Assembly: GCA_021787535.1 (NCBI GenBank)
Contig: JAJYLR010000001.1
Span: forward strand, 383,687-447,686
Source: a bacterium
GTDB lineage: Bacteria; Patescibacteriota; CPR2; UBA1875; JAJYID01
DNA length: 64,000 nt
Reading direction: 5' to 3'
The notes under the pieces were generated by a model. That model worked only from the letters and a program-made list of their open reading frames with translations. It was not told the origin of the DNA and searched no databases. Shown one piece after another: positions 5,043 through 63,936 of this stretch (within the stretch, counting starts at the first letter, position 1; each line of letters starts with the position of its first letter). Both the position numbers and the translations under genes were made by a program.

Positions 5043-5065
5043 GTCACTGCGGCCTGTCCAGAATC
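5043..5065. repeat. Degenerate family-A element ('gtcactgcggcctgtccagaatc')
   Basis: 19 of 23 nt identical to the family-A consensus. The palindrome is lost. Confidence 0.5.
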
Positions 5066-5078
5066 TTATTTTATTTTA

Positions 5079-5104
5079 GATTCCCGCCTCCGCGGGAATG
5101 ACAG
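5079..5104. repeat. Family-B palindromic element in reverse orientation ('gattcccgcctccgcgggaatgacag')
   Basis: Reverse complement of 'ctgtcattcccgcggaggcgggaatc'. Stem ATTCCCGC/GCGGGAAT. Confidence 0.7.
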
Positions 5105-5184: not shown

Positions 5185-5544
5185 TTAATTTTCAGCTTGA
5201 GTATTTTCTTCTTTTTCAGACTTAACATCGACAGTTTCTTCAGAGAGCTCTTCTTTGATTTCTTCCATTTTCTCATCGAGTTTAGTTGTGTCGACCGGCT
5301 GTTTCTCTTTCTTAATCTTTGGTTTCTGAGCAGCTTTCAATTTTTCAGCCGCTTCCATTTTTGCCTTAAATTTATCAACCCGGCCGGCGGTATCAACCAG
5401 TTTTTGTTTCCCTGTAAAGAAGGGATGACAAGCGCTGCAGATTTCCACTGTCAAATCACCCACGGTATTCATGGTTTCTATCACGTTGCCGCAACCGCAG
5501 GTAACGCGCGCTTTTTTGTATTCCGGATGAATTCCTTTTTTCAT
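5185..5544 (-). CDS. rpmE: 50S ribosomal protein L31 with a Lys/Glu-rich C-terminal extension
   Basis: MKKGIHPEY… with CxC…CxxCHPF zinc-ribbon motifs, plus a charged tail of about 45 aa. Confidence 0.85.
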
Positions 5545-7426: not shown

Positions 7427-7984
7427 ATGATACAGGAACTTATAAAGGGAGCTGAGCCAAAGTTTCAAAAGGCAATTGAAATACTCGAAGAAGAGCTTGC
7501 TGCTCTTCATACCGGCAGAGCAAGCGTGTCTTTAGTCGATGATATTCAGGTAGATGTTTATGGCGCAAAAAATCCTATTAAAGCTGTAGCTACCATTACT
7601 ATCCCTGAGCCAAGATCTATCCTTATTCAACCATGGGATCAAGCAAATTTGTCCCGGATTGAAAGTGCGATCAGAGAATCTGATCTAAAATTAAATCCGG
7701 TTAACACCGGCGAAAACTTAAGAATTAATCTTCCCGAACTTACTGAGGAAAGGCGAAAAGAATTCGTGAAGATTGCACATGAGAAGGCAGAAAATGCACG
7801 GATTGCCGTGCGAAATATCAGAGGTGACATACTAAATCATATTAAAAAGGCAAAGTCAGACGGAGCAATAGGTGAGGATGATATGTATTACGGGGAAAAT
7901 GAACTGCAAAAGGTAGTAGATAAATATAATGCGCAAATTGAAGAAATCCTTTCCGGTAAAGAAAAAGACTTGTTAACTATTTAA
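7427..7984 (+). CDS. frr: Ribosome recycling factor
   Basis: 185 aa with the typical RRF sequence pattern. It follows tsf directly with no pyrH between them. Confidence 0.9.
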   Translation: MIQELIKGAEPKFQKAIEILEEELAALHTGRASVSLVDDIQVDVYGAKNPIKAVATITIPEPRSILIQPWDQANLSRIESAIRESDLKLNPVNTGENLRINLPELTEERRKEFVKIAHEKAENARIAVRNIRGDILNHIKKAKSDGAIGEDDMYYGENELQKVVDKYNAQIEEILSGKEKDLLTI

Positions 7985-8003
7985 ATTGAAAAGGAATAAA
8001 TAA

Positions 8004-9125
8004 ATGGCCCTTTTTATATCAATCATAGGATTTCTCTTTGCCATCTTTTTAATTATCACTATTCACGAGTTTGGCCATTTTGTTTCAGCAAAAGCGAGCG
8101 GTGTCAGAGTAGATGAGTTTGCTTTTGGCTTTCCTCCCAATATTTGGAAAAAGAAAATCGGGGAAACTACTTATGCTATAAATATTGTTCTCCTTGGAGG
8201 ATTTGTCAAACTTTATGGTGAAGACGGCAAAGATGATAATGACCCGCGCAGTTTTGCCTCAAAACCGTTATATACCAAGCTTTTAATCTTTGCAGCCGGG
8301 GTATTCATGAACTTTGTGCTTGCCTACTTTATCATATTTGGAAGTTATTTGGTGGGCACCCAGCCGATTATTCCCGGAATGGCCGATCAAAAAGGTGTGA
8401 ATAATAACATGCGCGCCATAGTTACGACAGTTGAGAAAGGTACGCCGGCTGAAAAGCAAGGCCTGCAAAAGGGCGACATTATAGAGGAAGTTGACGGCAT
8501 TAAAGTCAATGACAGTACAACCATTGTTCAGTATCTCGAGGAAAAGGCGGCGAAAAATAAGAATGTAACTGTCAATGCGGAGGTAAGTAGAAACGGTAAA
8601 ATTTTTAATAAAACTTTCTCAACTTATCTTTTTAAGGAAAATGTGGGCGGAAAAACCCAGGAAGTGCCGAGAATTGGGGTAGTTTTAGAGACAAACGGGA
8701 AAGTTTCAGCGCCGTTTTTTACAGCTATGAAAGCATCTTTTTTAGAAGTTGGAACATTTATCTATGAATATACAACGATGTTTTTCCAAGTCATCGGTAG
8801 CGCATTGATACATTTTAAAGCGCCTGAAGGTATTGCTGGTCCCATTGGCGTATATATTCTTACGAGTAATGCTGCACAATCCGGTTTCTCTATTTTTATT
8901 CAGTGGGTTGCCATACTCTCGATAGCCGTTGGTATTATAAATATCTTGCCGGTTCCCGGTTTGGATGGCGGCCAGATTCTCGTTGCTCTGATAGAATCCT
9001 CAGTTCGAAGAAAATTCACAGCTAAAGTTAAAGGCATCATCCAGTTTGCCGGGCTCGGTTTTGTGATTGTTTTGTATATTGCTCTAACCTTTAAAGATTT
9101 CTTTACTTTTGGTATTATCAAGTAG
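8004..9125 (+). CDS. rseP: RIP zinc metalloprotease (site-2 protease, RseP family)
   Basis: HEFGHF zinc motif, a PDZ-like middle region, and a C-terminal LDGG motif. Confidence 0.85.
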   Translation: MALFISIIGFLFAIFLIITIHEFGHFVSAKASGVRVDEFAFGFPPNIWKKKIGETTYAINIVLLGGFVKLYGEDGKDDNDPRSFASKPLYTKLLIFAAGVFMNFVLAYFIIFGSYLVGTQPIIPGMADQKGVNNNMRAIVTTVEKGTPAEKQGLQKGDIIEEVDGIKVNDSTTIVQYLEEKAAKNKNVTVNAEVSRNGKIFNKTFSTYLFKENVGGKTQEVPRIGVVLETNGKVSAPFFTAMKASFLEVGTFIYEYTTMFFQVIGSALIHFKAPEGIAGPIGVYILTSNAAQSGFSIFIQWVAILSIAVGIINILPVPGLDGGQILVALIESSVRRKFTAKVKGIIQFAGLGFVIVLYIALTFKDFFTFGIIK

Positions 9126-9144
9126 CCCTAAATAAGAATTTAAA

Positions 9145-10389
9145 ATGAAACTAAGTAAACTTTTTTCCAAGACAACGAAAAACATTTCAAAGAAAGCTGA
9201 AAGCAAAAATCATGAGCTTTTAGTTCGGGCCGGATATGTGGATCAGCTAATGGCCGGTGTCTATACATATTTGCCGCTAGGGAAAAAGGTACTCGAAAAA
9301 ATTGAGGATATTATTCGCGAAGAAATGATTGAGATCGGCGGCCAGGAGATTTTAATGCCAGCGCTCACGCCTTATGAAAACTGGCAGAAAACAGGCAGAT
9401 GGGATACTATGGACGATCTTTACCGTTTTACAAGCTATTATTCTAAAAATAAAGTGGCACTCGGCGGTACTCATGAGGAAGTGGTAACACCTCTGGCTAA
9501 AAAATATATCCTATCTTACAAAGATTTGCCAAAGTATGTTTTTCAAATTCAAACAAAATTTAGAGATGAGAAAAGGCCAAAGTCAGGAATATTGCGAGGC
9601 AGAGAATTTAGAATGAAAGATTTGTATTCATTTCATACTGATGAGCAAGATTTGAATAAATATTATGACAAGGTTATTAAAGCTTATGAAAAAATTTTCA
9701 AAAGGTTTGGTTTGGGCGATAAAACATATCTTACATTTGCGTCTGGCGGAACATTTTCCAAATTCTCGCATGAATTTCAAACAGAGTCTCCAGTGGGCGA
9801 AGATACGATCTTTGTTTGCAGAAGATGTAAAATGGGTATAAATAAAGAAATCATCCTAACCCAGAAGGAGTGCCCGAAATGCGGTAAAACTGATCTTGAG
9901 GAAACTCGGGCAATAGAGGTTGCTAATATTTTCAAACTTAAAGATAAATTCACTAAACCTTTTAAGGCGATATATCTAGATAAAAAAGGCAAAGAAAATA
10001 CTGTGCTTATGGGATGTTATGGGATTGGGCCGTCAAGGATTATGGGAACTATAGTTGAAGTGCTGTCTGATGAAAAAGGTATTGTGTGGCCAAAAGAAGT
10101 TGCCCCATATCAGATTCATCTTATCAATCTCAAGGAAAGCGAGGAGGCAGAAAGGATCTATAATAAACTGCAGGCAGCCGGCTTCGATATTTTGTGGGAT
10201 GATAGAGATGAGTCGGCTGGTATTAAATTTCAAGACGCTGATTTACTCGGAATACCATTAAGGGTAGTGATTACTGAAAAATCTTTGAAATCCGGCGGTT
10301 ATGAGCTAAAAGTAAGAAACAGAACAAAGATTGAAATCTTAAATGAAAAAAATTTAATTAAAAAAGTAAAAGATTATTATGCTAAATAG
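9145..10389 (+). CDS. proS: Prolyl-tRNA synthetase: short form without the editing (INS) domain, with a CxxC…CxxC insertion
   Basis: N-terminus 'LVRAGYVDQLMAGVYTYLPLG' and class II motifs. Only 414 aa. Carries 'CRRCKMG…CPKCGK'. Confidence 0.8.
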   Translation: MKLSKLFSKTTKNISKKAESKNHELLVRAGYVDQLMAGVYTYLPLGKKVLEKIEDIIREEMIEIGGQEILMPALTPYENWQKTGRWDTMDDLYRFTSYYSKNKVALGGTHEEVVTPLAKKYILSYKDLPKYVFQIQTKFRDEKRPKSGILRGREFRMKDLYSFHTDEQDLNKYYDKVIKAYEKIFKRFGLGDKTYLTFASGGTFSKFSHEFQTESPVGEDTIFVCRRCKMGINKEIILTQKECPKCGKTDLEETRAIEVANIFKLKDKFTKPFKAIYLDKKGKENTVLMGCYGIGPSRIMGTIVEVLSDEKGIVWPKEVAPYQIHLINLKESEEAERIYNKLQAAGFDILWDDRDESAGIKFQDADLLGIPLRVVITEKSLKSGGYELKVRNRTKIEILNEKNLIKKVKDYYAK

Positions 10390-12358: not shown

Positions 12359-12853
12359 GTGGCCATACTTTTAGACATTTTAATTTTTATTGCAACTTTG
12401 CTTCTTCAAACATCTCTCCTTGCTCGTTTCCATATTTTGGGTTTCACGCCCAATCTCATGTTAATTTTAGTTATTACTTTTGTTTTTTATAAAAAAGCGT
12501 ACGAAGCGTATATTTTTGCTTTTTTGGCAGGCCTGGTCTTAGATACCTTATCGGCTGGCCCCTTTGGTTTGCATGTAATAATTTATCTGCTTATTGTTTT
12601 TGCCGGTACAGTGATTTTAAATGAAGATCAAACCAAGCTCTCAAAGCTTTTTTCTATGGTATTTGCAACAGCCGCGGCCTCAGTATTTTATATGGCGCTT
12701 TGGTTTTATTTATCATATTCGAGCGGCAGTTTTACTGCGTCCGGTTTTTTGTTTGCTATCGGACAAATAACCGCCACCATCATCTTTTTTGCGATATTTA
12801 TGCCATTTCTTAAACGATTTTTCCTATGGCAAAAGAGGATAGAAAGGGCTTGA
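12359..12853 (+). CDS. mreD: Rod shape-determining protein MreD (polytopic membrane protein)
   Basis: GTG start. Hydrophobic 164-aa protein between mreC and the PBP2 gene. Confidence 0.6.
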   Translation: MAILLDILIFIATLLLQTSLLARFHILGFTPNLMLILVITFVFYKKAYEAYIFAFLAGLVLDTLSAGPFGLHVIIYLLIVFAGTVILNEDQTKLSKLFSMVFATAAASVFYMALWFYLSYSSGSFTASGFLFAIGQITATIIFFAIFMPFLKRFFLWQKRIERA

Positions 12854-14938: not shown

Positions 14939-15577
14939 ATGTCCGAAAAAGGAAGTTTCATTGTTCTTGAAGGAATTGACGGGTCGGGGAAATCTACCCA
15001 AATAGATTATCTTGTTCCGCGGCTTACGTTTTTGCGCAGAAGTGTTGTAAAAACAAGAGAGCCGTATGACGAACCGGAAAATGAAGTTGGATTTCGGATT
15101 CGGCAGATTTTACTTGGAGAAGAAGAAAATCCCGGTTATTCCGAACTGCAACAAATGTTTGTTGCCGCGCGCAAGTGGCATCTGGAAAATATAGTTATTC
15201 CGGCTGTTAACGGCGGAAAGCTGGTGCTCTGCGATAGATATACAGCAAGTACTTACGCTTATCACCGGTCAAAAGGCGGCCATTTCGATGATGTTTGGGC
15301 ATGGCATTGTGAGTGTAATTACCCGGCCGATGTTACTGTTTTGGTTCGGGTTTCTGCTGAAGAGGCCGCAAGAAGAATGGTTCTTGCAGAAAGAAAAGAA
15401 GAGCTCTTTGATAAGAAGGAGAGCTTAATAGCTATTCACGGCGCATATGAAGAGCTGCTTAAAACTGGTGATGAGTATGTTCCGGATTTCAGATTTGCAG
15501 ACGGAGAACAAAATCCGGAAAAAGTTAGCGAGGATATTATGAAGATCCTTCGTGAATACATTCCGGACCTATGGTAA
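14939..15577 (+). CDS. tmk: Thymidylate kinase
   Basis: P-loop FIVLEGIDGSGKSTQ and a DRY motif (CDRYTAS). Confidence 0.9.
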   Translation: MSEKGSFIVLEGIDGSGKSTQIDYLVPRLTFLRRSVVKTREPYDEPENEVGFRIRQILLGEEENPGYSELQQMFVAARKWHLENIVIPAVNGGKLVLCDRYTASTYAYHRSKGGHFDDVWAWHCECNYPADVTVLVRVSAEEAARRMVLAERKEELFDKKESLIAIHGAYEELLKTGDEYVPDFRFADGEQNPEKVSEDIMKILREYIPDLW

Positions 15578-15589
15578 AAGGAGAAGAGT

Positions 15590-16393
15590 ATGTATCTTGA
15601 TTCGCTTGAAAAAATGAATCCTGAGGAGCGGGAAAAGGTAATTCGAGAAAGAAACGAAATGCTGCCGATAACGATCAATGCAACCGATCTGGATGATGCT
15701 TGGTTCCAGGTTATAAACTGCATAATGCGGTATGGCCATTACTACGGTATTCAGCGCGGAAGCTATGAGGGTTCCGGAAGAATAGAACTGGATAGTAGTA
15801 CTATTAACATCATAGATCCCGGCTCGGGTCCTTTGGTTCCGCATATGCCCGATAGTCTTGGTATACCGGCGCCATGTGAGGAAGATTATGTCAGAGAGCA
15901 GTATTTCCCGCAGTATCTTTTCGGGAATATTAAGTCGGGCAACGAACAGTATACTTATGGCGAGAGGATTAACCAGCCGATTTCGGATGAACATCTCGGA
16001 GAAACCATGACTCAGTTGGAGTGGGCGATAAAAATGCTCAGAGATACTCCGCAAACTAACCAAGCAACGATCGAGATCGCTTGCCCGGAAGATATCACGG
16101 CGCGAGACCCTGAGAGCCATCACCCCGATCCGCCCTGCCTGCGGCTTCTTGACTTCAGGGTACGGTATGGAAAACTTCACGTTTTTCCCTACTTTCGTTC
16201 ATGGGATGCATGGAGCGGCTTCCCTGCTAATCTCGGAGGGATTGAACTTCTTAAACAGTATATGGCAGATGAGATTGGTATAGAGAATGGGTCAATCTTT
16301 GCGTTTAGCAAAGGTTTGCATATATACAACCATGTTGAAAAAGCTGTCCGCATCCGTTTACACATGGATGAAAGGGAAGAAGCTAATACATAG
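15590..16393 (+). CDS. Thymidylate synthase (ThyA) fold protein, divergent
   Basis: 'PPCLRLLDF' aligns with the ThyA 'PPCH.FFQF' (Cys nucleophile). 'YFRSWDAWSGFPANL' aligns with 'YQRS.DVFLGLPFNI'. Immediately downstream of tmk. Confidence 0.55.
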   Translation: MYLDSLEKMNPEEREKVIRERNEMLPITINATDLDDAWFQVINCIMRYGHYYGIQRGSYEGSGRIELDSSTINIIDPGSGPLVPHMPDSLGIPAPCEEDYVREQYFPQYLFGNIKSGNEQYTYGERINQPISDEHLGETMTQLEWAIKMLRDTPQTNQATIEIACPEDITARDPESHHPDPPCLRLLDFRVRYGKLHVFPYFRSWDAWSGFPANLGGIELLKQYMADEIGIENGSIFAFSKGLHIYNHVEKAVRIRLHMDEREEANT

Positions 16394-16463: not shown

Positions 16464-16492
16464 TTGACCAATTTTTTAATATTTGTTAAAAT
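16464..16492 (+). promoter_or_regulatory. Sigma70-type promoter (TTGACC, 17 nt spacer, TAAAAT) with a hairpin leader upstream of rplJ
   Basis: Seen directly. Downstream is 'gtagcagcgaaagcttaatttgctac', a hairpin that may be the L10 leader. Confidence 0.55.
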
Positions 16493-16609
16493 GTTAATTA
16501 GCCAAAGACAGTAGCAGCGAAAGCTTAATTTGCTACCGAGGTAAAGATTTAGATAATTTTTATTCATCTTTGGTTTGTCCAAAGATTTTTAATTTATAGG
16601 AAATAAAGT

Positions 16610-17137
16610 ATGGCAATTACAAGAAAGAAAAAAGAAGATTTAGTCGAGGAGTTTGCCGAAAGATTGAGAGAGTCGAAGGCGGCGGTTTTTACCGACTACA
16701 AGGGCTTGACGGTTGAGGAAATCAACGAGGTCCGAAACTCGCTCAGAGAAAAGGGAATTGAGTTTAAGGTTATCAAAAACACTTTATTTGGGTTAGCCGT
16801 AAAGGAGGCGAAGCTCGATGTAAATCCCGACGATTTGGCGGGCCACCCGGTTGCGGTAGCTTTTGGTTACGAAGATGAAGTTGCACCTGCGAAAGTGGTT
16901 TTCAACTTTGCAAAAGATCATGAGTCCTTAGAAATAATTGGCGGTATTCTAGAGGGGAAAAATATTGATGCTGTGAGCGTGAAAAACTTAGCGCAAATGC
17001 CATCCAGAGAAGAGCTGCTCGCAAAAATGATCGGATCCATGAATGCGCCTATTTCAAACTTTGTAGGTGTTATGCACGCAAATTTTAGAAATGTAGTTTA
17101 TGTATTAAATGCGATTAAAGAGCAAAAGGAAACTTAG
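16610..17137 (+). CDS. rplJ: 50S ribosomal protein L10
   Basis: MAITRKKKEDLVEEF…; 175 aa; followed by rplL. Confidence 0.9.
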   Translation: MAITRKKKEDLVEEFAERLRESKAAVFTDYKGLTVEEINEVRNSLREKGIEFKVIKNTLFGLAVKEAKLDVNPDDLAGHPVAVAFGYEDEVAPAKVVFNFAKDHESLEIIGGILEGKNIDAVSVKNLAQMPSREELLAKMIGSMNAPISNFVGVMHANFRNVVYVLNAIKEQKET

Positions 17138-17142
17138 CCCCC

Positions 17143-17168
17143 TGTCATTCCCGCGCAGGCGGGAATCT
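17143..17168. repeat. Family-B palindromic element ('ctgtcattcccgcgcaggcgggaatc')
   Basis: 8-bp stem ATTCCCGC/GCGGGAAT with loop GCAG, 6 nt after the rplJ stop. Confidence 0.7.
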
Positions 17169-17223: not shown

Positions 17224-17778
17224 ATGGCAGAAGAAGATGTAAAACAAGATGATACCCAAGAAGAAAAAGCTGAGGAAGTAAAAGAAGAAACTCCTGCGGC
17301 TGAAGAAAAAACAGAGGAAACGCCCAAAGAGGAGCCAAAAGCCGAGGAAAAGCCGGCTGAGGAGCCCAAAAAAGAGAAAAAAGAAGTAGAGGTGCCTAAA
17401 AAGTTTAAAGATCTCGTCAAAACTATCGAGGATATGAGCGTGCTTGAAATGGCAGAACTCGTAAAGGTTCTTGAAGAAAAGTTCGGTGTATCCGCAGCAG
17501 CTCCTGTAGCAGTTGCCGCTGCCCCGGCAGCAGGCGGTGCCGCAGCCGAGGAAACAGAAGAAAAGTCAGCTTACACTGTAGTTTTGACCGCTGCAGGATC
17601 AAATAAAATCGGCGCCATCAAGGCAGTCCGAGAGATCAACCAAGAACTTGGCTTAAAGGAAGCAAAAGATCTGGTAGACAATGCTCCAAAGACAGTTGCT
17701 GAAAACCTTAAGCCGGAAGATGCAAATGCTGCGAAAGAAAAACTTGAAGCAGCCGGCGCAACAGTTGAACTAAAATAG
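17224..17778 (+). CDS. rplL: 50S ribosomal protein L7/L12 with an N-terminal Glu/Lys/Pro-rich extension of about 58 aa
   Basis: Core '[30 protein letters not shown]…' aligns with the L12 N-terminal domain and hinge. The upstream ATG has a strong AAGGAG RBS. Confidence 0.85.
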
Positions 17779-17799
17779 TTTTTAACTTAAAACTTGGAT

Positions 17800-17834
17800 A
17801 AAGAGAGTACAAAATTTGCTCTCTTTATTTTTAT
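17800..17834 (+). terminator. Intrinsic terminator after rplL
   Basis: 'aaagagagtacaaaatttgctctcttt' followed by 'atttttat'. Confidence 0.6.
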
Positions 17835-38564: not shown

Positions 38565-38855
38565 ATGGCTATGTTTGGAAAAGCCAAGGAGCAATATGAG
38601 TTTGTCAAAAAGGCGCGTGAGATACAAAAGAAGCTGCGGGCTGAGATCGTCGAGGGCGCATCGGGCAATGTCACGGTTAAAATGAACGGTGAAATGAAAG
38701 TACAGTCAGTTAGTATTGACGCCGAAACAATCGATGATGTCGGCCAGCTTGAGCGCGATGTACAGTCAGCTGTAGAAAGCGCTACTGAAAAAGCCCAAAA
38801 AATCGCCCAAAATATGATGAAAGATGTTATGGGCGGCGGCGGAATGCCATTTTAA
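38565..38855 (+). CDS. ybaB: YbaB/EbfC nucleoid-associated protein
   Basis: 96 aa with the typical YbaB pattern. Precedes recR. Confidence 0.8.
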   Translation: MAMFGKAKEQYEFVKKAREIQKKLRAEIVEGASGNVTVKMNGEMKVQSVSIDAETIDDVGQLERDVQSAVESATEKAQKIAQNMMKDVMGGGGMPF

Positions 38856-38866
38856 CCATCCCAGCC

Positions 38867-38892
38867 CTGTCCTTCCCGCGAAAGCGGGAATC
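38867..38892. repeat. Family-B palindromic element ('ctgtccttcccgcgaaagcgggaatc')
   Basis: Stem TTCCCGC/GCGGGAA with loop GAAA, 12 nt after the ybaB stop. Confidence 0.65.
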
Positions 38893-38944
38893 CAGACAAT
38901 TAACGATTTAGATTTCCGACCAAGTCGGGAATGGTATATATGAT

Positions 38945-39545: not shown

Positions 39546-39992
39546 ATGGAAATTTTATTAAAATACACTTACCTTCTCGAGCCAAAAGAAGTTGAGCAAG
39601 AACTCGAAAATCTTTGGAAAAGATATGAAGAAATTTTAGCAAAACCTACCTGGGAAAATTTGAACGAAGCCCGTGCAATACTATATCTGGTCGGTATAAT
39701 TTATCTCGAGCAAATTGCGCCGGATGCAATAGAAAGAAGACTCCATTTACTTAAAAAACCTATCACTATTTTACAATTTTTCACGATTATCGATTCCAGA
39801 TCAGAAAAACTGAATGAATATAGGAAAGATCGATTGTTTAGAGATCTTGAAAAATTCTACCTGATTCTAAAGAAAAATAAGAACAGATTTGTCGGCGGGA
39901 AGCACTACATGAACGAGGAAAAATTTATTAACCTTTATAATAAATATAATCCAGATCAAGAACTCAAAATCAGAGCAAAAGGTAGATACTAA
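39546..39992 (+). CDS. Hypothetical protein
   Basis: 148-aa ORF with no motif. Confidence 0.45.
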   Translation: MEILLKYTYLLEPKEVEQELENLWKRYEEILAKPTWENLNEARAILYLVGIIYLEQIAPDAIERRLHLLKKPITILQFFTIIDSRSEKLNEYRKDRLFRDLEKFYLILKKNKNRFVGGKHYMNEEKFINLYNKYNPDQELKIRAKGRY

Positions 39993-40040: not shown

Positions 40041-41801
40041 TTGAGGTGGTTTATGAAAGATTTATGGAGAATATTTAAGTTAGCTTCCGCAAAGAAAAAA
40101 CTGACTGTACTGATATTTCTTACAGCAATACTCCAAATGATAGTGGAGGCGCTTTTTCCTATTTCCTTAAAGCTAATTTTTGACCTCCTGCAAAACCAGT
40201 TCCGAACCGGTTCCACGCATATCAACTTTAATATTTTCATTTTACTTATCGGCTTTTATGCATTTCTTGTGATTATACAGATCTTAACACGTCTCTGGGA
40301 CGCTTACTATGAATCAAAATGGTGGATAGAAACTAGAAATATAGTCTCCCTGAAAATTTTTCATCACTTAGAAAATCTATCTATATCGTTTTGGGAAAAA
40401 ACTTCTACCGGAAAAATAGTGGAAAAAATCGCAGGCGGAGTAAATGATATGCAAGGCATTATGGAAGACGTCTTACAGGAAATCTTCCCGCAATTTATAT
40501 ATATCATCTTCGCACTAGTGGTTTTAATGTGGGTCAGCTGGATCTTTGGATTGATAATCCTAGTGGGAGTACCTATTTTCGTCATTACAAGTATTAAGTT
40601 TACCAAACCTCTGAATACTCTTCAAGATGAGGTAAGAGATGAGTTTGAGAAAGCTGGGAAAGTCAGAGTTGAAACGTTCACTAATATTAAAACTGTCAAA
40701 TCCTTTGCAACAGAACTCAGACATGCGCGTGAACTGCAAAAAGCATTGGAGAAATCTAAAAGCAAGGCATTAAAACGAATGAAACTTTATGTGAGAATGA
40801 ATATCATCAGATTTGGTATTATGAACGGATCAAGGATCGCAATGCTTACAGTCGGCGTTTACTGGGTATCTCAGGGGAAAATTACTGTAGGTACTTTAGT
40901 GATGATCTGGAGTTATATCACCGGTATTTACTCGCCGCTTTGGACTCTAAGCAGAATCTACGATCGTATACAGCAAGATTTAAGAAGTATAAGAAGGATT
41001 TTTGAGATATTAGATACCGTACCGGAAATTCAGGACATGAAAGGCGCATATAATTTAGAAAAAATAAAAGGAAGCATCAAACTTGAAGATTTAAAATTTA
41101 GGTATAAAAACCGTAATGTTATAAATGGTATTGACCTTGAAATCCCAGAGGGAAAAGTTATGGCTGTGGTTGGCAAAAGCGGTGTTGGGAAATCCACATT
41201 AGTAAAATTACTTTTAAGGTTCTATGATCCTCAGGAAGGTAAAATCTTAGTTGATGGATATGATATTAAGGACGTTACTCAAAAATCGTTGCGCGAAAAC
41301 ATCGGTGTGGTTTTGCAAGACACAGCGATATTTAACGATACTGCATACAACAATATTGCCTATGCTAATCCTAAAACCAGCAAGAATGAAGTTCTAAAGG
41401 CCGCAAAAACTGCCCATGCACATGATTTTGTCAAGAATCTTCCGGAAGGATATGATACTATTGTTGGTGAAAGAGGAGTAAAGCTGTCTGGCGGCGAACA
41501 GCAGAGAATAAATATTGCCCGTGCAATTCTGAAAAATCCTCCTATTCTGATCCTAGATGAAGCCACATCTCATCTTGATTCAGAAAGCGAAAAACTAATA
41601 CAAGATGCTCTGTGGAAACTGATCAAAGGCAGAACATCTATCATTATTGCCCATCGGCTCTCAACCATCATGAAGGCGGATTTAATAGTAGTACTCGATA
41701 AGGGTAAAATAGCAGAAATAGGCACACATGACGAACTAGTGAGACACGAGGGAATATATAATAAGCTGTTTAAAATCCAGTCGGGAAGTTATTTAAAATA
41801 G
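40041..41801 (+). CDS. ABC transporter permease/ATPase fusion (MsbA-like exporter)
   Basis: N-terminal 6-TM domain plus a nucleotide-binding domain with GKSGVGKST, LSGGEQQR and ILILDEATS. Confidence 0.9.
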   Translation: MRWFMKDLWRIFKLASAKKKLTVLIFLTAILQMIVEALFPISLKLIFDLLQNQFRTGSTHINFNIFILLIGFYAFLVIIQILTRLWDAYYESKWWIETRNIVSLKIFHHLENLSISFWEKTSTGKIVEKIAGGVNDMQGIMEDVLQEIFPQFIYIIFALVVLMWVSWIFGLIILVGVPIFVITSIKFTKPLNTLQDEVRDEFEKAGKVRVETFTNIKTVKSFATELRHARELQKALEKSKSKALKRMKLYVRMNIIRFGIMNGSRIAMLTVGVYWVSQGKITVGTLVMIWSYITGIYSPLWTLSRIYDRIQQDLRSIRRIFEILDTVPEIQDMKGAYNLEKIKGSIKLEDLKFRYKNRNVINGIDLEIPEGKVMAVVGKSGVGKSTLVKLLLRFYDPQEGKILVDGYDIKDVTQKSLRENIGVVLQDTAIFNDTAYNNIAYANPKTSKNEVLKAAKTAHAHDFVKNLPEGYDTIVGERGVKLSGGEQQRINIARAILKNPPILILDEATSHLDSESEKLIQDALWKLIKGRTSIIIAHRLSTIMKADLIVVLDKGKIAEIGTHDELVRHEGIYNKLFKIQSGSYLK

Positions 41802-41823
41802 TCATTCTGGCTTGTCCAGAATC
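41801..41823. repeat. Family-A palindromic element ('gtcattctggcttgtccagaatc')
   Basis: Overlaps the ABC gene stop codon. Stem ATTCTGG/CCAGAAT with loop CTTGT. Confidence 0.7.
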
Positions 41824-44067: not shown

Positions 44068-45029
44068 GTAAGTTTAGTTGGAATAAACTCAATAAACCTT
44101 TTTTTGTAATGGCGCCGATGGATGGGATTACTTCATCTCCTTTTCGGCGGGTGGTGAAAAGGTGCGGCGCAGATGTGGTCTTCTCTGAAATGATTGCGGC
44201 GGAAGCGGTTTATTATAAATCAAAGAAAACGCTTGCCATGATGAACTTTCATGAAGAGGAACGTCCCTATATTGTCCAAATTTTCGGCAAAGATACAGAG
44301 AAGATGGTGGGAGCGGTGCAGTATATCGAAAAGGAAGTTAAACCCGACGGCATAGACATAAACATGGGTTGTCCGGCCAAGAAAGTTGTCTCCGGCGGAC
44401 GCGGATCGGCGCTTTTGCTCGATCCTGAAAAAGCGGTCGAAATAGTCAGAACTGTGCGAAGTGCCACAAAGCTGCCTTTATCAGTTAAAACTCGCATCGG
44501 TTGGGAAAAGTTTAATATCCAGCCGCTTGTCAAAGAGTTCGAGAATGCTGGCATTGATGCGCTGACAATTCATGGCAGGACAAAGACGCAAGGTTTTGCC
44601 GGAGAGCCGGACTTAGATGCACTTAAGGAAATTAAGAAATTAGTCAAAATACCTGTTATCGGAAATGGGGGAATTAACTCGGTGGAAGATGCGCAAAAAA
44701 TGCTCAGCTTCACCGGCTGCGATGGCATAATGGTCGCCCGCGGCGCCCTCGGAAATCCCTGGATATTTAAGTCATTACATTTTCTTCGTCATTCTGGCTC
44801 AGTCCAGAATCTTGACTACAAACCCAACTTTGAAGAAATACGAAATCTAGCCCTTTTGCACCTGCAAATGAATATTGAGGAGTTTGGCCCCAAAAAAGGC
44901 ATTTTTGACATGCGAAAACATTACGGCTGGTATTTCAAGGGCTTTCCCGGTGCTAGCGAACTGCGCAAAAAACTTGTTCTTGCTGAAACAAAGAATGAGA
45001 TAAGATCGATCATAGAAAAAATGGGGTAA
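44064..45029 (+). CDS. tRNA-dihydrouridine synthase
   Basis: 'MAPMDGITSSPFRR', a catalytic 'NMGCP', and a TIM barrel. Contains an in-frame family-A element at 44789-44812. Confidence 0.85.
   Translation: MSKFSWNKLNKPFFVMAPMDGITSSPFRRVVKRCGADVVFSEMIAAEAVYYKSKKTLAMMNFHEEERPYIVQIFGKDTEKMVGAVQYIEKEVKPDGIDINMGCPAKKVVSGGRGSALLLDPEKAVEIVRTVRSATKLPLSVKTRIGWEKFNIQPLVKEFENAGIDALTIHGRTKTQGFAGEPDLDALKEIKKLVKIPVIGNGGINSVEDAQKMLSFTGCDGIMVARGALGNPWIFKSLHFLRHSGSVQNLDYKPNFEEIRNLALLHLQMNIEEFGPKKGIFDMRKHYGWYFKGFPGASELRKKLVLAETKNEIRSIIEKMG
44789..44812. repeat. Family-A-like palindrome inside the dus CDS ('gtcattctggctcagtccagaatc'), encoding RHSGSVQNL
   Basis: 21 of 24 nt match the intergenic family-A elements and the hairpin is preserved. 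Confidence 0.5.
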
Positions 45030-63861: not shown

Positions 63862-63884
63862 GTCATTCTGGCTTGTCCAGAATC
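63862..63884. repeat. Family-A palindromic element ('gtcattctggcttgtccagaatc')
   Basis: Identical to the 41801 copy, 14 nt after the serS stop. Confidence 0.7.
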
Positions 63885-63936
63885 CAAATCTTATTAAATA
63901 GATTCCGGATCAAGTCCGGCAGTGAAGGAGAGAAAA

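Follow-up and report, generated by a model that had tools for sequence, protein, structure and literature searches.

The 64-kb stretch analysed here (the window, positions 1–64,000) comes from a bacterium related to candidate division WS5; its RplJ is 87% identical to that of GCA_003598115.1, and one stretch of the window shares 74% DNA identity with a Patescibacteria MAG. Gene calling placed rplJ at 16610–17137, followed by rplL, and ybaB at 38565–38855, followed by recR, while on the minus strand rpmE (5185–5544) is followed by prfA. Scanning for the pattern ATTCCCGC-N4-GCGGGAAT with up to two mismatches returned exactly three matches in the window (5080–5099, 17147–17166, and 38872–38891), against 0.03 expected from shuffled sequence. 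The three palindromic copies that an earlier note on this DNA had placed at 17143, 38867, and 5079, and had named family B, are therefore present where they were reported.

The first copy (17143–17168, plus strand, TGTCATTCCCGCgcagGCGGGAATCT with flanks) lies in the rplJ–rplL spacer and begins 6 nt past the rplJ stop codon (17135–17137); its structure is TGTCATTCCCGC-gcag-GCGGGAATCT, with a score of 38.7 bits under our covariance model and a DNA hairpin of −8.9 kcal/mol (z −4.0). An identical copy is found in an independent short-read assembly of the same organism (Logan SRR13170411), whose contig ends right after it (L001, 2385–2419), as expected at a dispersed repeat. The second copy (5078–5104, minus strand, CTGTCATTCCCGCggagGCGGGAATCT with flanks) sits between rpmE and prfA, both on the minus strand, and has the structure CTGTCATTCCCGC-ggag-GCGGGAATCT (35.1 bits; DNA hairpin −8.9 kcal/mol, z −4.3). 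It is indeed downstream of rpmE, as had been noted, but at a distance of 80 nt rather than directly behind the stop codon. The third copy (38867–38895, plus strand, CTGTCCTTCCCGCgaaaGCGGGAATCCAG with flanks) occupies the ybaB–recR spacer, beginning 11 nt past the ybaB stop codon and ahead of recR; it reads CTGTCCTTCCCGC-gaaa-GCGGGAATCCAG and scores 30.5 bits. All three are in sense orientation relative to the flanking genes. The stems and variable loops (GCAG, GAAA, CTCC) were described correctly overall, except that CTCC is the plus-strand reading of GGAG and that the first stem base of the 38867 copy is C, not A, so that its outermost pair is broken.

A second family (A), GTCATTCTGG-N5/6-CCAGAATC with loops cttgt or ctcagt, is represented by four exact copies in the window, against 0.00 expected. 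The copy at 82–104 (GTCATTCTGG-cttgt-CCAGAATC, minus strand, 30.4 bits) is antisense to the flanking plus-strand genes; the remaining three are on the plus strand. Of these, the copy at 41801–41823 (31.1 bits) lies just ahead of cysS, its GTC overlapping the TAG stop codon (41799–41801) of an MsbA-like ABC transporter gene, the copy at 44788–44811 (loop ctcagt, 36.7 bits) is in frame within dusB, and the copy at 63862–63884 (38.9 bits) starts 13 nt past the serS stop codon. Run on the whole window, the covariance model recovered exactly seven strong copies (E 2e−7 to 2.5e−5) and two degenerate partners. The GTC before the palindrome and the C after it are kept in all seven (three B and four A); six of the seven are perfect hairpins with both flanks intact, and six are in sense orientation. 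Since the copies are scattered over 64 kb, CRISPR repeats or any other arrayed repeat were rejected.

Three of the seven copies form tail-to-tail doublets with a degenerate or truncated partner. The 5078–5104 copy is paired with a plus-strand half copy of family A at 5054–5065 (CTGTC/CAGAATC), which looks, from its sequence, like the product of a deletion between the two GTC repeats of GTCATTCTGGCTTGTCCAGAATC. The partner of the 38867–38895 copy (38910–38934) reads CCATTCCCGAC-ttg-GTCGGAAATCT on the minus strand and is a weak model match at 38908–38933 (13.6 bits, E 0.37), giving a doublet like those seen in many other genomes. The partner of the 63862–63884 copy (63900–63925) reads TCACTGCCGGA-cttga-TCCGGAATCT on the minus strand, with a weak match at 63905–63919 (compare GTCATGCCGGACTTGATCCGGCATCC in locus L009).

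One further hairpin in the window, ATCTTTGG-tttgt-CCAAAGAT at 16566–16586 upstream of rplJ, superficially resembles family A and was considered as a decayed copy; it is the terminal hairpin of an L10 leader (Rfam RF00557, 68.6 bits, 16484–16600). At the Rfam gathering score, this leader and one tRNA are the only matches in the window, and no family was called at the hairpins. Separately, cumulative GC skew climbs across the whole window (1–64000), so that the plus strand is probably the leading strand; the GTCAT strand is on the plus strand, that is, on the lagging-strand template, in five of the seven copies, a sample too small for a test.

Comparison with published repeats gave family B a name. 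The Neisseria transformation sequence (NTS), CGTCATTCCCGCGMAVGCGGGAATCYRG, contains the old dRS3 repeat (ATTCCC-N8-GGGAAT) and is bound and cut, only as ssDNA and on one strand only, by SsnA, a small single-domain GIY-YIG protein (cd10448) for which RNA and dsDNA are no substrates and which does not bind RNA; three bases ahead of the palindrome matter for cutting, and binding depends most strongly on the C right after it (Chenal et al., Nat Commun 2025, PMC11893778). According to the same study, related hairpins (Ssn-related motifs, SRMs) flank ssn genes across phyla, a variant with another stem (NTSvar) has its own nuclease, and Ssn homologs are present in 81% of the genomes that carry more than 200 SRMs, binding and cutting as ssDNA having been demonstrated for the Neisseria and Wolbachia proteins only (PMC11893778).

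Relative to the NTS consensus, the B copies carry two (17143), two (38868), and three (5076–5103) mismatches, with 0.00 matches expected; the mismatches affect the initial base (T in place of C), one or more bases at the end, a single loop position, and, at 38868, the first stem base (A>C). The dRS3 core is exact in the 5080 and 17147 copies and begins with CTTCCC in the 38872 copy. Shuffle expectations (0.03 for the B pattern, 0.00 for family A, and 0.00 for the NTS consensus) rule out a chance origin of the A and B copies. None of the three B copies falls within the NTS search rule of the published study (≤1 mismatch), and its degenerate SRM search string, HGTCWYN(0-2)YYVSBRHN(0-5)WNVSBRGN(0-2)RNCYNB, is matched by a single one of the seven window copies (17143; 0.09 expected), the other B copies failing by one flank base each and family A failing in the stem. 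The string being too narrow to collect the family, we built our own covariance model. By DNA folding, the window copies show one feature of SRMs, that of a 20–50-nt inverted repeat able to form an ssDNA hairpin.

With NTS, family B shares the GTCATTCCCGC-N4-GCGGGAATC core, GNAR-like loops, oriented GTC and C flanks, the hairpin itself, and, in other genomes, a position flanking small GIY-YIG genes. It differs in its host, a WS5/CPR-like uncultured bacterium rather than Neisseria, in its first base (T, not C), and in a 3′ tail that is CTA rather than CYRG in two copies. Family A shares with SRMs and NTSvar the architecture GTCAT-stem-loop-stem-ATC, a stem of its own, as in NTSvar, and an Ssn clade of its own; unlike published SRMs, it falls outside the degenerate string, and a full-text literature search found its 21-mer absent from the searchable papers. 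CPR bacteria are probably poorly covered by the RefSeq representative and reference genomes searched in PMC11893778. The hairpins after rplJ, ybaB, and rpmE are thus copies of the dispersed repeat described in 2025 and not gene-specific regulatory hairpins, which makes the original observation real but mostly explained already, and removes a false lead towards operon-specific regulation. The window copies, from a candidate-phylum genome, add members to a known family, and among them family A is a variant not described before.

As single-stranded DNA, the seven window copies fold at −5.2 to −8.9 kcal/mol (z −3.1 to −6.0), and at most three of 200 shuffles fold as well. Conservation of pairing was examined in copies from other genomes. 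Partner copies were picked solely by a 5-nt flank and by lying beside an anchor copy; 51% of them show, immediately past GTC, a perfect hairpin of 7 bp or longer, with 26 distinct stems, against 1.35% for control GTCA[TC] sites. Across 73 distinct hairpins, six of the seven stem pairs have changed on both sides and the outer A-T pair alone is invariant, although this set was chosen for pairing and hence shows diversity rather than significance. In 100 loci, the matches of the covariance model were 100% paired, with 26 double-change cells, a value reached by none of 500 shuffles; the alignment consists of the best 150 matches fitted to the model structure and so leans toward pairing. Although the search put no constraint on the position following the palindrome, 143 of 150 copies from other genomes have C there. 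Families A and B therefore belong together in a superfamily whose asymmetric flanks (GTC 5′, C 3′) are constant and whose stems vary with pairing kept; because the stems covary while the flanks stay fixed, the idea of one superfamily in which structure is selected was right.

A scan of one genome per species (185,579 species) for TGTCMTTCCCGC-N3-6-GCGGGAAT located the family B 24-mer in at least 120 stretches of species-representative genomes across many phyla, against a roughly estimated chance yield of about 9. The matches listed include Bacteroidota, Zixibacteria, Planctomycetota, Nitrospirota, Chloroflexota, many Proteobacteria, Rickettsia/Tisiphia, many CPR groups, and one Nanoarchaeota bin, several of them on multi-megabase chromosomes; the Rickettsia and Tisiphia genomes (L066, L087) carry true NTS copies. 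Oriented B copies elsewhere read TGTCATTCCCGC-GAAG/GAAA/GCAG/GTAG-GCGGGAAT-CCAG, often with a second, inverted copy 20–60 nt downstream whose stem is frequently different yet paired. The family A 23-mer was found in at least 120 metagenome contigs, where its usual tail-to-tail partner is GGATTCCCGACAAGCGGGAATGACA or a longer hairpin of the ATTCTGG type.

GIY-YIG ORFs (PF01541) of about 95 aa are present in 17 of 240 fetched loci. NTS copies lie on both sides of the gene in three of them (L017, L059, L073) and family A copies on both sides in another (L180), and in six of seven loci the 3′ end of the A-type gene is bordered by an inverted A copy. The A-linked proteins carry the motif YIMANxRPTLYTGVT and are 59–74% identical to each other, compared with 44–55% identity to the NTS-linked proteins; being closer to each other than to the NTS-linked ones, they indicate that the hairpin class goes with the nuclease clade. 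A database search using a profile of A-type Ssn gave 7,968 matches, the best 120 of which came mainly from CPR (Gottesman-, Levy-, Woyke-, and Howlettbacteria), and this predominantly CPR clade sets family A apart from the published SRMs. In one locus (L150, 12270–12734), the A-type ssn gene is split over two reading frames with extra hairpin copies inside it (12583–12648), and looks like a pseudogene hit by its own repeats.

The repeats resemble REP/BIME elements and REPINs, which share with them a dispersed intergenic distribution, singlets and frequent inverted doublets of short palindromes with an oriented head, and a linked single-copy gene flanked by the repeats. If the elements were of that kind, they would owe their mobility to an IS200/IS605-type Y1 transposase (RAYT) and would not be partners of Ssn. 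The typical REP head is GTAG/CTAC, and the head here is GTCAT. In the fetched loci, the gene that adjoins the copies and is flanked by them encodes a GIY-YIG rather than a Y1/HUH fold, in agreement with the genome-wide screen that linked such repeats with a GIY-YIG gene (PMC11893778). We therefore consider RAYT-driven mobility very improbable, even though the resemblance to REPINs was pointed out in that study itself.

The explanation we favour, and hold to be very probably correct, is that the elements are Ssn-related motifs, hairpin targets of small GIY-YIG nucleases, with family B of the NTS type and family A a sister type that differs in stem and loop. Every copy is a near-palindrome of 24–28 nt flanked asymmetrically by GTC (5′) and C (3′), whose GTCAT-reading strand, when single-stranded, would fold into a 7–8-bp hairpin. 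Such single-stranded DNA could arise on the lagging-strand template, within transcription bubbles, or when DNA enters the cell by transformation or conjugation. The hairpin shape and the flanks would together be recognised by Ssn, a small single-domain GIY-YIG nuclease, which would nick a few bases 5′ of the hairpin; as shape and flanks would be what is read, stems could differ so long as they are paired, and each stem and loop class would travel with its own Ssn clade. Cutting of ssDNA only and the roles of GTC and the 3′ C are taken from PMC11893778 and carried over by analogy to the window copies, on which Ssn would presumably act in this organism. Copies occur as singlets or as tail-to-tail doublets that resemble gene-less [SRM> ssn <SRM] units, and would accumulate where harm is small (short intergenic spacers and, occasionally, a tolerant protein linker) before decaying. 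On this account, selection most likely acts on a hairpin that a nuclease reads in ssDNA.

The earlier note had instead read the covarying stems as post-stop-codon hairpins selected in RNA or cruciform DNA; the structural constraint on the superfamily stands, and the RNA-level function at gene ends is not supported. Several features of the window could suggest hairpins that act in RNA (as terminators, attenuators, or 3′ stabilisers) and are kept by selection at gene ends: four of the seven copies begin within 13 nt of a stop codon, the predominance of the sense orientation could also be explained by a role at the RNA level, and the hairpins would fold in RNA too. A terminator scan of 1–20 kb, which covered three copies, called neither the 5080 nor the 17147 copy; the only call among the three was a weak one, obtained under a lenient rule, for the opposite-strand reading of the 82–104 copy. 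Directly after the stem, no B copy has a T-run (the tails are CTATAAGA, CTAAAATA, and CCAGACAA), whereas T-tailed, terminator-like hairpins are present elsewhere in the scanned region, for example at 2604–2631 and, after rplL, at 17796–17830. Intrinsic terminators were consequently rejected as the identity of the B copies.

Gene context in a larger sample also argues against an RNA-level role. Among 297 copies, 20.5% are inside crudely called long ORFs, which cover 81% of the DNA, and within 150 nt of the other copies there are 132 3′ and 121 5′ gene ends, with 76 sense and 56 antisense copies at the former. Neither 3′ ends nor the sense orientation is thus preferred. Nor would an RNA signal that evolved locally be expected to recur as an identical 24-mer across phyla, and SsnA does not bind RNA but acts on ssDNA (PMC11893778). 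One copy is within a coding sequence (dusB), the rplJ copy is inside the rplJ–rplL operon and missing in relatives with 93% and 88% RplJ identity, and L248, the closest relative, has no ybaB copy and a msbA–cysS copy that decayed without compensation. Taken together, these observations make selection for an RNA function at gene ends quite improbable; the link of the copies to stop codons is most likely incidental.

The orthologous sites bear on whether the repeats are mobile and on how they spread. The rplJ–rplL spacer measures 86 nt in the window and 35–36 nt in the two relatives with RplJ identities of 93% and 88% (L242 and L243), the difference being a block of about 50 nt that holds the 17143 copy. 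Similarly, the ybaB–recR spacer is 89 nt in the window and 18 nt in L248. Judged by these spacers, both copies, at rplJ and at ybaB, are insertions that the closest relatives lack, and this also speaks against a function tied to those genes. Upstream of cysS, the orthologous copy in L248 (8416–8440) has decayed to TAGTCCTTTTTGCTTAATAGGAATC, with pairing lost and no compensation. Conversely, L231 has a doublet in the mreC–mreD spacer, where the window has no copy, and a 12-nt spacer of the window is likewise empty at the site of two copies in L100. No target-site duplications were visible at the insertion junctions, the relatives being too diverged to tell. We argue from such presence and absence between relatives that the repeats are mobile.

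Decay of this sort raises the possibility, a variant of the Ssn explanation rather than an exclusive alternative, that the lineage lost its nuclease and that the window copies are inert and drifting. Motif scans, tblastn, and HMM searches found no ssn or other GIY-YIG gene in the 64-kb window, and none was found in the ~99 kb fetched from relatives, a difference from the Neisseria system. Nor does any of the best 120 A-type Ssn matches lie on a contig with the length of the source contig (635,771 bp). The degenerate partners at 38910–38934 and 63900–63925, the half copy at 5054–5065, the broken outer pair at 38867, and the decayed msbA–cysS copy in L248 are in keeping with drift. Yet the hairpins and their GTC and C flanks are perfect in six of the seven window copies, the frequency of Ssn homologs in genomes with more than 200 SRMs (PMC11893778) points the other way, and insertions that differ even between relatives with 93% RplJ identity suggest recent activity. 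Inert relics therefore seem unlikely, if less so than either an RNA function or RAYT-driven mobility.

In dusB, the family A copy (44788–44811) is in frame, encodes RHSGSVQNL, and lies in a linker after the motif NPWIF. The window gene is 24 nt longer than that of L248 (10001–10897), whose site is empty. An alignment of DusB homologs shows three states at this one position: empty in seven relatives, the closest one included (FKS[IL]K--xxKxYKP); family A in the homologs P0122 and P0124; and family B in P0127, where CHSRAGGNL is NTS read in frame. At the DNA level, the window and L247 (6327–6356) carry GTCATTCTGGCTCAGTCCAGAATC (family A), and L246 (2121–2150) carries GTCATTCCCGCGCAGGCGGGAATC (family B, NTS) at the same codon position. 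The two fillings differ at six of 12 inner bases, with two stem pairs changed on both sides. This could mean that the two families have a common target site or that one was exchanged for the other in situ.

Palindromic repeats within housekeeping genes have a precedent in the Rickettsia palindromic elements (RPEs), which Ogata and colleagues reportedly found in 2000 to be inserted in frame in genes. RPEs are 100–150 bp long, against 24 nt for the dusB insert, and are likewise tolerated in surface or linker segments. On a more tentative level, the Ssn/SRM units may constitute an active, uncharacterised mobile element of CPR-like bacteria that drops 24-nt hairpins into spacers and even in frame into genes, and whose resident hairpins can be overwritten by those of the other stem class. 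We regard this as possible though doubtful. If it held, the A and B states at dusB would imply copy-templated replacement begun by an Ssn nick, not stepwise compensatory mutation. The stem-class exchange at dusB and the insertion polymorphisms are the parts worth following up. Insertion, in-frame gene insertion, decay, and stem-class exchange at one orthologous site go beyond what was reported in PMC11893778, as do the extension of the Ssn/SRM system to a candidate-phylum (WS5/CPR-like) genome and the addition of a stem and loop variant, family A, that has its own nuclease clade and is missed by the published search string.

The same comparisons yielded some minor observations on gene content. 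A 148-aa ORF between recR and the ABC transporter gene (39546–39992) is absent from L247 and L248, where the corresponding spacers are 94 and 74 nt long. The L7/L12 protein of the window (17224–17778) has 184 aa, with an acidic, lysine-rich N-terminal extension of about 60 aa, and the gene is of similar length in L242 (184 aa) and L243 (189 aa). In the window, rplJ is preceded by tmk and thyA on the plus strand (14939–16393), and L242, the closest relative at this locus (RplJ 93%), has thyX (PF02511) and tmk on the minus strand (7535–9616), so that the type of thymidylate synthase differs between close relatives.
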